A stretch of DNA of 64,000 nt. Origin: Escherichia coli. GTDB lineage: Bacteria > Pseudomonadota > Gammaproteobacteria > Enterobacterales > Enterobacteriaceae. This document shows, piece by piece, positions 31,001 through 34,000 of the stretch. Made by a program: the position numbers. Position 1 is the stretch's first letter. Each line of letters starts with the position of its first letter. The stretch lies in NCBI RefSeq assembly GCF_030013595.1, contig NZ_CP122768.1, one strand, 5' to 3'.

Positions 31001-34000
31001 ATACGTCGGGGCTAAATCGCGCCAGCGCTGGCTGTTTTACGCGTATGACAGGCTCCGGAAGACGGTTGTTGCGCACGTATTCGGTGAACGCACTATGGCG
31101 ACGCTGGGGCGTCTTATGAGCCTGCTGTCACCCTTTGACGTGGTGATATGGATGACGGATGGCTGGCCGCTGTATGAATCACGCCTGAAGGGAAAGCTGC
31201 ACGTTATCAGCAAGCGTTACACTCAGCGCATTGAGCGACATAACCTGAATCTGAGACTACATCTGGCAAGGCTGGGCAGGAAGTCACTGTCGTTCTCAAA
31301 ATCGGTGGAGCTGCATGACAAGGTCATCGGGCATTATCTGAACATAAAACACTATCAGTAAGTTGGAGTCATTACCACTATTTTAATGGATTGTTAATCT
31401 TTGCATATTCAAACGGGCTGATACATTGTTCTCTGTTCGCATCCAGAAAATCTGCCCACCACTGTAGCATAAGTCGACGTTCTTCCAGATGTTCGGCTTT
31501 ATGGATATACGCAGCACGTACACCATTACGCTCCTGATGGCTCATCTGACGTTCAGCCGCTTTATCTCGTGCTGTTCTGGTCTCAATACTTCCATGCCGT
31601 TGCAATTACCTCTTAAACCATTCCTTACCATTTTCATGTCTTCGATAAGAAATCTTCATCATGCATGATCGATTTTGTCGATCGATTCGATCGAATTTTC
31701 TCTTTTTACCCTGTCTTTTGCATGGTTTTAAAATAAGCAACCTTCTTTATCGTGTGGGTAAGAACCAACGGAGATGATTGAAATGAAAAAGGTTATTGCT
31801 GTTTCAGCGCTTGCTATGGCGGGCGTATTTTCAGCCCAGGCTCTGGCTGATGAGAACAAAACTGGCTTTTATGTGACTGGTAAAGCCGGTGCTTCAGTTG
31901 TGGCTCAGACTGACCAGCGCTTCCGTCAGGACTTGGGGGAGGATGTTTATAAGTATAAGGGCGGCGATAAGAACGATACTGTATTTGGTGCAGGCCTTGC
32001 GGTGGGCTATGATTTTTATCAACATTACAATGTTCCTGTGCGCACGGAAGTGGAATTCTATGGCCGCGGAGCTGCGGACTCCCATTATACACTGGATACA
32101 TGGCATTCTCCGATGGGGAATGGTGGTCGGGAAGACACACAGAACAGGCTCAGTGTGAATACCCTGATGGTGAACACGTATTATGATTTCAGAAACAGCA
32201 GTGCATTCACTCCATGGGTATCTGTTGGCCTAGGTTATGCACGAGTACATCATAAGGCGACATATACTGATACCTCCTGGAATGAATCTGGCGAGATAAG
32301 TGATATTTCTGAGTTACATTACTCGGGATATGATAACAATTTCGCATGGAGCATTGGGGCCGGTGTTCGCTATGACGTAACCCCGGATATCGCTCTTGAC
32401 CTCAGCTATCGCTATCTGGATGCTGGTAAATCCTCCCTGTCTTACAAGGATGCAGAAGAGGATAAATATAAATCAGAAGTTGACGTTAAAAGTCACGACA
32501 TCATGTTTGGTGTGACTTATAACTTCTGACGACACTGCTCCTGAGCGATAATTACACATATTCAGTAATTAAGATATTTATATATCTTCTGCAACTAAAC
32601 AGAAATACCCTGCAGTAATATATCGCAGGGTCATTTGTTTCACAGGAGATTTCTGGTTTTTATTATGTTATTCTCTTTATAATAATATTACCGATATATT
32701 CCGATGAATATCAGAAAACTGTTTTGTCCGGGCAACACACCCCAGATTTTATTGTTTTTATTCTTTTTTATTGTTTCTGTAATAACCACAATTGCATGCG
32801 GATACACTGAGAAGAATGCCACAGGAAATGTGCTGCTTCTGTTTCTCCTTCTTCTCCTTGCACACAGAAATACCCTCACATCCATTACAGCGCTGTTATT
32901 TCTGTTCTGTTGTGCACTGTATGCGCCTGCCGGTATGACGTACGGTAAAATCAACAACAGTTTTATTGTCGCGTTGTTGCAGACCACAACTGATGAGGCA
33001 GCGGAGTTTACCGGGATGATTCCTGTTTATCATTTTCTGGTCAGTGCCGCGATTCTGGTATTCATGGTGATTTTCTGGCGGACACATCACCGTGGTCACC
33101 GTAACTGGCTGGCACTGCTGCTGTTCGTATTATGCTCAGTAAACAGCTGGCCGTTGCGGATGGTTAAAGGAACTGTTGTGGGGACAACTGACACATTGCG
33201 TGAAATGCAGCATTATAAACAACTGAGTCAGCACGGGGCTGACAACTGGAAAATCCTGCCGGGAACACCGTTATATGACACGATTGTGATTGTCACTGGT
33301 GAGAGTGTGCGCAGGGATTATATGTCGGTATATGGCTATCCCGTGCCAACCACGCCGTGGCTGAATACAGCTCCCGGTTTATTTATTGACGGCTATACAT
33401 CGGCAGCAGCCAGTACCGTACCTTCCCTGAGCCGGACACTGATTTATGACTATGAGCAGAACCCTGATTCCGGCAACAACGTGGTGGCGCTGGCAGCAAA
33501 AGCAGGATACAGCACATGGTGGATATCCAATCAGGGAAAACTGGGAGAGCATGACACACGCATCTCTGTTATTGCTTCTGATGCGGAGCATACCGTTTTC
33601 CTCAAGAAAGGCAGCTTCGCTTCCCGTAAAACGGATGACATGTTGTTGTTACAGGAAACAGAACGTGCGCTGGCGGATAAATCCTCTCCGAAGGTGATTT
33701 TCCTGCACATGATTGGCTCTCATCCGAATCCGTGTGACCGACTTAACTCCTGGCCGAATTATTACCTGGAGCAGTATCCCCGAAAGATTGCCTGTTACCT
33801 CGCCAGCATCAGTAAACTGGATAACTTTCTCGGTCAGCTTGATGGTATCCTTCGCCGGCATTCCCGTCATTTCGTCATGCTTTACTTTTCTGACCATGGG
33901 CTGTCGGTCAGCGACAGTGCTAATCCTGTTCATCATGATGGTCATGTGCAGGGAGGCTACAGCGTTCCCCTGATTATTACCGCCAGTGACATCACGTCTC

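Follow-up and report, generated by a model that had tools for sequence, protein, structure and literature searches.

Is the outer membrane protein gene that lies beside the multi-resistance region of a selC island in Escherichia coli an invasin gene of the tia type or an adhesin gene of the Hek/Hra1 type, and does it still look functional? We considered this question for a stretch of 64,000 nucleotides (nt) from contig NZ_CP122768.1 (assembly GCF_030013595.1), referred to below as the window, with all coordinates counted from its first letter. An earlier note, made from the sequence, had described the product of an open reading frame (ORF) at 31774–32529 as a "Tia/Hek-like" outer membrane invasin/adhesin. 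Judged by sequence comparison, the gene is an intact and already catalogued allele of tia, and the account of its product as a functional outer membrane adhesin/invasin, which is exported, forms a β-barrel, and binds proteoglycans, holds as a whole with a probability of about 0.88 in our estimate.

Identity and proposed function of the tia allele

The ORF, located on the plus strand, is uninterrupted and, as had been claimed, encodes 251 amino acids (aa) and ends with GVTYNF; it starts with MIEMKKVIAVSALAMAGVFSAQALA followed by DENK. Its product matches the Pfam family OMP_b-brl (PF13505; E=9e-23, 81.8 bits against a cut-off of 28.7 bits) and, more weakly, the OmpA-TM, OmpW, and Opacity families. 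In a BLASTP comparison with the prototype Tia (toxigenic invasion locus A outer membrane protein) of enterotoxigenic E. coli (ETEC) H10407 (WP_001536427.1; taken from NC_017633, where tia occupies positions 4226532–4227278 in the island adjoining selC), 236 of 251 residues are identical (94%), with 96% positives and no gaps, and the protein is 88% identical to Tia of SE-PAI, the subtilase-encoding pathogenicity island, from LEE-negative E. coli that produce Shiga toxin (STEC; LEE, locus of enterocyte effacement). NCBIfam holds no Tia-specific model, and its best match, the Rickettsia adhesin Adr (101 bits, under the 210-bit cut-off), was not used.

Matches to tia with at least 99% nucleotide identity are present in 49 complete E. 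coli genomes; among the matches listed, every copy is 100% identical and annotated as "invasion outer membrane protein Tia" (WP_001385633.1), the identical copies coming from bovine, poultry, and human isolates. In a wide protein search, the window protein fell within the 90%-identity cluster that also holds Tia-named proteins and has 1222 members, a few of them from E. marmotae and Salmonella. Large clusters holding Hek-named proteins are 63–66% identical to it, other large E. coli lineages of the Hek/Hra1/Hes/Hra2 family about 63–69%, and more distant relatives, from Providencia, about 43–45%. Direct comparison with one Hek-named protein gave 65%, in agreement with the published figure of ~65% for Tia versus Hes/Hra1 (PMC5539235), and the gaps and substitutions are concentrated in the predicted surface hairpins. 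Hence the protein is no low-identity relative of Tia, and of the double label given to it in the earlier note the Tia half stands while the Hek half falls away: this is Tia proper.

Database naming in this group is inconsistent. The label Tia is given by PGAP to alleles at least 94% identical; the SE-PAI Tia, tested for invasion and 90% identical at the nucleotide level, is called by PGAP just "outer membrane protein"; and some older records name Hra-type proteins at about 63% identity "tia invasion determinant" or "Hek".

The predicted structure is that of a small outer membrane barrel. An AlphaFold2 model of Tia, built from a 39-sequence family alignment (mean predicted local distance difference test score, pLDDT, 89.5; predicted template modeling score, pTM, 0.81), has eight long antiparallel strands, which short turns connect at one side of the barrel and hairpin tips at the opposite side, forming four long surface hairpins; for residues 1–23 pLDDT is below 50, as expected of a signal peptide. 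The nearest structures found by Foldseek in the PDB are 8-stranded outer membrane barrels, namely, NspA (template modeling score 0.78 on target), the OmpA transmembrane domain, OmpW/OprG, OmpX, and Ail, the latter being a heparin-binding invasin, and a sequence search of the PDB with the window Tia yielded only weak matches to Opa60 and NspA and no structure of Tia or Hek. Cleavage is predicted after the ALA motif of a 22-aa signal peptide and would leave a mature protein of 226 aa, 25.5 kDa, and isoelectric point 4.9, that is, of the ~25-kDa class of Tia, with the eight-stranded barrel and the C-terminal aromatic residue. The signal peptide read from the sequence, the terminal Phe, the modeled strands, and the PF13505 match together bear out the description of a signal-peptide-bearing β-barrel.

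Codon differences from the H10407 tia comprise 26 synonymous and 15 non-synonymous ones, and this excess of synonymous changes indicates that tia is under purifying selection overall. Eleven out of 13 changes in the mature protein fall on hairpin tips or distal strand halves (12 or more residues away from where the strand meets the periplasm), a pattern that fits a functional, surface-exposed, diversifying adhesin.

Tia was first described in ETEC H10407 as a 25-kDa outer membrane adhesin/invasin, and PMC7545054 and PMC2553418 present it as binding heparan sulfate proteoglycan and residing in a selC island; the SE-PAI allele is reported to contribute to invasion, as cited in PMC6455142 and PMC8454413, and the Tia protein has been detected in outer membrane extracts (PMC6455142). 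We propose that the precursor encoded in the window would be exported by the Sec pathway, lose its 22-residue signal peptide, and be inserted by the β-barrel assembly machinery (BAM), with the C-terminal ...TYNF as the aromatic signal, as an eight-stranded β-barrel, from which four long β-hairpins would reach beyond the membrane. By homology to Tia of H10407 and SE-PAI, the exposed hairpins would bind heparan sulfate proteoglycans of host cells, and this binding may promote the attachment of the bacteria to intestinal epithelial cells and their entry into them. A virulence role for the window allele is likewise suggested by its homology to the alleles that have been tested.

Several observations weigh against this account. 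Twelve residues of the window Tia differ from both tested alleles, those of H10407 and SE-PAI, and in net charge the mature protein is more negative than that of H10407 by ~3 units, due to R104H, R111H, A180E, and G229E in exposed parts, partly offset by D116N; with the extra negative charge, heparan sulfate, itself a polyanion, could be bound less strongly. The carriage of identical copies by the listed bovine, poultry, and human isolates is in itself no proof of a role in disease. Finally, a consensus promoter scan did not rise above chance in the region (2 sites versus 4.3 expected), and the promoter described below is therefore called from its conservation.

It is also conceivable, though we consider it unlikely, that the protein functions as Hek, Hra1, or Hes do, i.e., as a heat-resistant haemagglutinin and a factor of autoaggregation or biofilm formation rather than an invasin, the barrel being shared and the loops setting the phenotype. 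Tia belongs to the same Hra family and has the same fold class and conserved barrel strands as Hek, Hra1, Hes, Hra2, and PagN of Salmonella; a conserved 5′ block is common to tia and the Hek-named locus, Hek-type loci have the same downstream partner as tia, a sulfatase-family gene for phosphoethanolamine (PEA) transferase, and the members of the family differ in their mix of adhesion, invasion, and aggregation (PMC5539235). Set against this are the much closer match to Tia, the divergence from the Hek-named protein in precisely those hairpins that are predicted to be exposed, and the different phenotypes reported for the relatives (PMC5539235, PMC2553418); in particular, Hek requires its loop 2 for agglutination, and in Tia this loop diverges strongly (PMC2553418). 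We thus retain the assignment as a functional Tia.

Start codon, transcription signals, and the GATC cluster

The true start of tia is more probably ATG 31783 than ATG 31774, so that the product would have 248 aa, because the Shine–Dalgarno-like GGAG (Table 1) touches ATG 31774 with zero spacing but lies 9 nt before ATG 31783, and because codon 31774 is ATA in the SE-PAI copy, ATG 31783 being invariant. The RefSeq/PGAP annotation of the identical gene starts at ATG 31783 as well. Past the stop codon, at a distance of about 80 nt, the sequence can fold into a stable hairpin that runs into a U-rich stretch and is probably the tia terminator: the RNA fold of 32596–32645 has an energy of −15.9 kcal/mol (z = −5.3), and none of 200 shuffles folds as well. 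A terminator scanner did not pick up this hairpin, which was found by RNA folding. Given the hairpin and a separate promoter-like site of the PEA-transferase gene at 32639–32666, tia looks monocistronic and, having a conserved 5′ block and a terminator hairpin of its own, apparently forms a self-contained unit. No RNA family besides tRNA-Sec was found by Rfam near tia.

Table 1. Features of the tia locus and the adjoining part of the selC island (window coordinates).
Feature	Coordinates	Strand	Basis and remarks
IS1 transposase genes insA/insB (frameshift)	30664..31361	+	ORFs; IS1B annotation in identical loci
Tyrosine recombinase/integrase remnant, C-terminal part only	31378..31605	−	ORF; PGAP pseudogene in the identical locus, H10407, and other loci
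5′ regulatory block	31631..31760	+	Accompanies tia/Hra-family genes in every genomic context examined
GATC (Dam) cluster of three sites (31667, 31680, and 31689), within GATCGATTTTGTCGATCGATTCGATC	31667..31692		Candidate methylation-sensitive operator
Promoter-like block	31703..31740	+	−35 TTTACC at 31705, 18-nt spacer, −10 TAAAAT ending at 31734
Shine–Dalgarno-like GGAG	31770..31773	+	9 nt 5′ of ATG 31783; invariant across aligned loci
tia coding sequence from the probable start	31783..32529	+	248-aa precursor (coordinates include the stop codon); longest ORF begins 9 nt earlier, at 31774
Sec signal peptide MKKVIAVSALAMAGVFSAQALA	31783..31848	+	Read from sequence: KK in the n-region, then hydrophobic core and A-x-A
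Probable intrinsic terminator of tia	32607..32640	+	Stem CCCUGC.../...GCAGGG, then UCAUUUGUUU
PEA transferase, 500 aa, sulfatase family	32704..34206	+	Pfam Sulfatase E=7e-37, EptA_B_N
Tetratricopeptide-repeat (TPR) protein, island backbone	34566..35639	−	Pfam TPR-type matches; PGAP
P4-type tyrosine recombinase, island integrase	36042..37232	−	Pfam Arm-DNA-bind_3, Phage_int_M, Phage_integrase; adjoins selC
selC (tRNA-Sec), island integration site	37530..37624	−	ARAGORN; Rfam RF01852, 83.8 bits; annotated in identical loci

Homology with the SE-PAI copy starts at 31627, and the 5′ block that follows is composed of the GATC cluster, a variable spacer of ~10 bp, the promoter-like block, and, further downstream, the GGAG. 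This block is present in 1681 out of 5426 complete E. coli genomes (~31%), and among the matches listed there is no annotated feature beneath it. Its conservation was assessed on 13 distinct block variants from lineages with proteins down to 65–69% identical; besides the window, the loci concerned are L003, L004, L005, L006, L008, L012, and L019–L025. The most conserved 30-bp interval is 31665–31694, containing the GATC cluster, the second most conserved one is the promoter-like block, and the spacer between them varies freely.

A different arrangement is seen in a widespread lineage of the Hra type (P0213; loci L010 and L024), where the GATC/promoter block lies upstream of a 122-aa hypothetical ORF (915–1283 in L010). 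This ORF stands between the block and the outer membrane protein gene, and the latter has an unrelated AT-rich upstream region.

The cluster itself packs three GATC sites into 26 bp immediately 5′ of the promoter-like block, the next GATC being found only at 35114, after 3.4 kb free of such sites. All three sites are invariant in the first five aligned loci, and over the 13 variants pairwise identity averages 0.99 in the GATC columns versus 0.78 in the remaining ones; in a control, 118 out of 20000 random tetramer triples were as conserved. The number of GATC units differs between lineages. Some Hra-family lineages have a fourth GATC due to an exact 9-bp insertion (ATGATCGCA-like), aligned to window positions 31686/31687 (L005 at about 5895–5925, L012, and L023), with resulting spacings of 13, 9, and 9 bp, and in the Hek-named locus (L008) the first GATC is lost and reads GATT.

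The terminator scanner called a terminator at the GATC palindrome; this call was rejected, as the stem consists of palindromic TCGATCGA repeats, there is no plus-strand gene upstream, and the 9-bp unit varies.

The cluster resembles the Dam/OxyR phase-variation operator of agn43 (flu), which, together with the gtr and opvAB switches, is the closest known system for this element. The window sequence GATCGATTTTGTCGATCGAT coincides with the agn43 core GATCGTTTATATCGATCGAT (GATC-II/III of K-12 flu) at 17 out of 20 bases, and a search of the window with the agn43 20-mer, allowing for at most three mismatches, returned this site only, with matches in none of 100 shuffles. In both cases, three GATC sites are clustered, and the first two sites of the window have a 13-bp spacing, as do GATC pairs in the OxyR half-sites of gtr (PMC2909390); moreover, tia, too, encodes a surface adhesin. 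There are also differences: the GATC cluster of the window lies upstream of the predicted −35 box, whereas the agn43 sites are downstream of the transcription start, and there is a single good OxyR half-site in the window, with seven out of ten consensus positions compared to eight out of ten in agn43.

The OxyR tetramer consensus is matched by the window at 11–12 out of 20 positions versus 14 out of 20 in agn43, and an equally good score is reached by ~5% of random stretches of 140 bp. As this match to the full tetramer is marginal, we do not claim OxyR specifically as the regulator.

We tentatively suggest that the cluster may be a Dam-methylation-sensitive operator, at which OxyR or another regulator would compete with Dam, giving heritable ON/OFF expression of tia and those Hra-family genes that have the same 5′ block, although on the present comparison we regard this as possible rather than likely. 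In the open-access literature, to which the search was confined, subscription journals being outside it, we found no report in which Dam, OxyR, or phase variation is connected with tia, Hek, or Hra.

The island around tia

The earlier note had placed the gene in a selC island and had called this island associated with virulence, resistance, and defence. Both statements agree with the gene content. The tRNA-Sec gene, the sole tRNA gene of the window, lies 5 kb from tia with an integrase gene adjoining it, and the core genes yicJ, yicI, and others are found to the right of selC. The order leftwards from selC is integrase, TPR protein, PEA transferase, tia, integrase remnant, IS1, and resistance region (Table 1). 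The right-hand IS1 borders the resistance region and abuts the integrase remnant, which H10407 and other islands likewise keep beside tia. A search of the 64-kb window for the selC 3′ end, at up to three mismatches, found no second copy, i.e., no direct repeat, and hence the island extends past the left edge of the window.

With the tia-PAI of H10407, the island shares the selC site, the integrase–selC end (98.6% nucleotide identity), the integrase remnant and the 5′ regulatory block beside tia, and a Tia protein of the same length with the same type of signal peptide and C-terminal motif; in the tia segment, as in the TPR gene, identity is 90–92%. It differs from the tia-PAI in the absence of leoABC, the locus of the dynamin-like GTPase LeoA, which is next to tia in H10407; in the PEA transferase, which is longer in H10407 and of a 500-aa type without DNA homology in the window (32533–34240 have no match to the H10407 island); in the IS1-bounded resistance region, in whose place H10407 has DUF4365 and hypothetical genes; and in the 15 substitutions in Tia, mostly surface-exposed. 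With SE-PAI, in turn, the region 31627–35720 (tia, 500-aa transferase, and TPR genes) is collinear (L006, 5848–9925; ~92% nucleotide identity), including the same 5′ block with three GATC sites. Unlike the window island, SE-PAI carries subAB (subAB2) and is inserted at pheV, and its integrase is another one, with no more than a partial match of 82%; the window island, at selC, has IS1 and the integrase remnant upstream of tia instead of subAB. Due to the absence of leoABC and the SE-PAI-like tia-proximal module, the island is not the H10407 tia-PAI as such: its backbone is a hybrid, or mosaic, of an H10407-type integrase–selC end and an SE-PAI-type tia–transferase–TPR module, with breakpoints near 31627 and 35720.

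By published description, the island is also similar to LIC, a selC island of STEC with the integrase as ORF1 and tia as ORF4 (PMC6455142), and to the tRNA-Sec island of ETEC ST182, in which an integrase and a phosphoethanolamine transferase are found alongside tia (PMC8454413); in contrast to these, the portion of the island that lies in the window showed neither a contact-dependent inhibition (CDI) system nor ETT2-like genes. Previously, tia has been described in selC islands (H10407 tia-PAI, LIC), pheV islands (SE-PAI, LAC), and a tRNA-Sec island (PMC7545054, PMC6455142, PMC8454413), and the module of tia, PEA-transferase, TPR, and integrase genes occurs both at selC (the window, H10407, and LIC) and at pheV (SE-PAI).

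In most divergent loci, situated in different islands, a sulfatase-family PEA-transferase gene (~500 aa) directly follows the Tia/Hek/Hra-type outer membrane protein gene (loci L006, L008, L010, L014, and L019–L022). This suggests that the two genes form a conserved surface module, with H10407 as an exception.

Such pairing across divergent Hra-family loci could mean that Tia serves envelope physiology together with the adjacent transferase, e.g., in surface remodeling, in resistance to serum or peptides, or as a phage or colicin receptor, and that invasion is a laboratory side effect; that about 31% of complete E. coli genomes have a homolog of tia or of the block upstream of it may be read in the same way. 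We hold this to be improbable, as tia and the transferase gene are apparently separate transcription units, given the terminator hairpin and the separate promoter-like site, H10407 has leoABC between tia and the transferase gene as well as a different transferase, and adhesion and invasion phenotypes are reported for two Tia alleles (PMC7545054, PMC6455142). It is very unlikely that tia is a silent passenger, left over from a decayed island and without expression in this strain: the island is indeed heavily rearranged, with IS1 and the resistance block ~270 bp upstream of the regulatory block, a truncated neighboring integrase, and leoABC missing, but the ORF is unbroken and many genomes have an identical copy of it, synonymous changes exceed non-synonymous ones, and the full conserved 5′ block, the Shine–Dalgarno sequence, and the terminator are all present, IS1 stopping before the block. 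Thus, a functional Tia remains more likely than any of the three alternatives.

Resistance genes and a type I restriction–modification system are located in the same island as tia. The multi-resistance region, at about 8883–31361, is flanked by two IS1 copies and lies between the end of the restriction–modification genes and the integrase remnant. It contains the Tn21 mer operon, tni genes, IS1326, a TnAs3-type transposase gene, a class 1 integron (intI1 at 23032–24045, and dfrA1-aadA1-qacEdelta1-sul1), and an ORF of the size of catA1 at 29726–30385; the gene names in this region were taken from collinear loci that are fully annotated and identical or nearly so (L001, L007). Within the collection, this exact arrangement of the resistance region is found in no genome, and none has the whole window contiguous.

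The leftmost part of the island, window positions 1–8610, harbors the R, M, and S genes of the type I restriction–modification system and a gene for a RelB/DinJ-family antitoxin, and is 100% identical in strain VTB97379v and an O111:H8 strain. At the corresponding position, H10407 and W2-5 carry another type I system.

Implications for tia islands and the Hra family

The co-occurrence of an adhesin and resistance genes in a selC island of E. coli has already been documented (PMC8454413, PMC6455142), and the tia island at tRNA-Sec has been described as a hotspot for antimicrobial resistance insertions (PMC8454413), so that in this respect our result is an ordinary one. Still, an adhesin/invasin gene, multi-resistance, and restriction in one selC island are useful to recognize in annotation and in risk profiling of the strain. 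The points of added value are the probable correction of the start codon, the hybrid backbone without leoABC, the pairing of outer membrane protein and transferase genes, and the agn43-like GATC cluster. The hybrid backbone bears on the question of the relationship between tia-PAI and SE-PAI, which was raised as an open one in PMC7545054. If the tentative reading of the GATC cluster as a methylation-sensitive operator is true, a widespread adhesin family would join the small set of E. coli epigenetic switches, and phase variation could explain the variable phenotypes of Tia, Hek, and Hra in adhesion and invasion assays.

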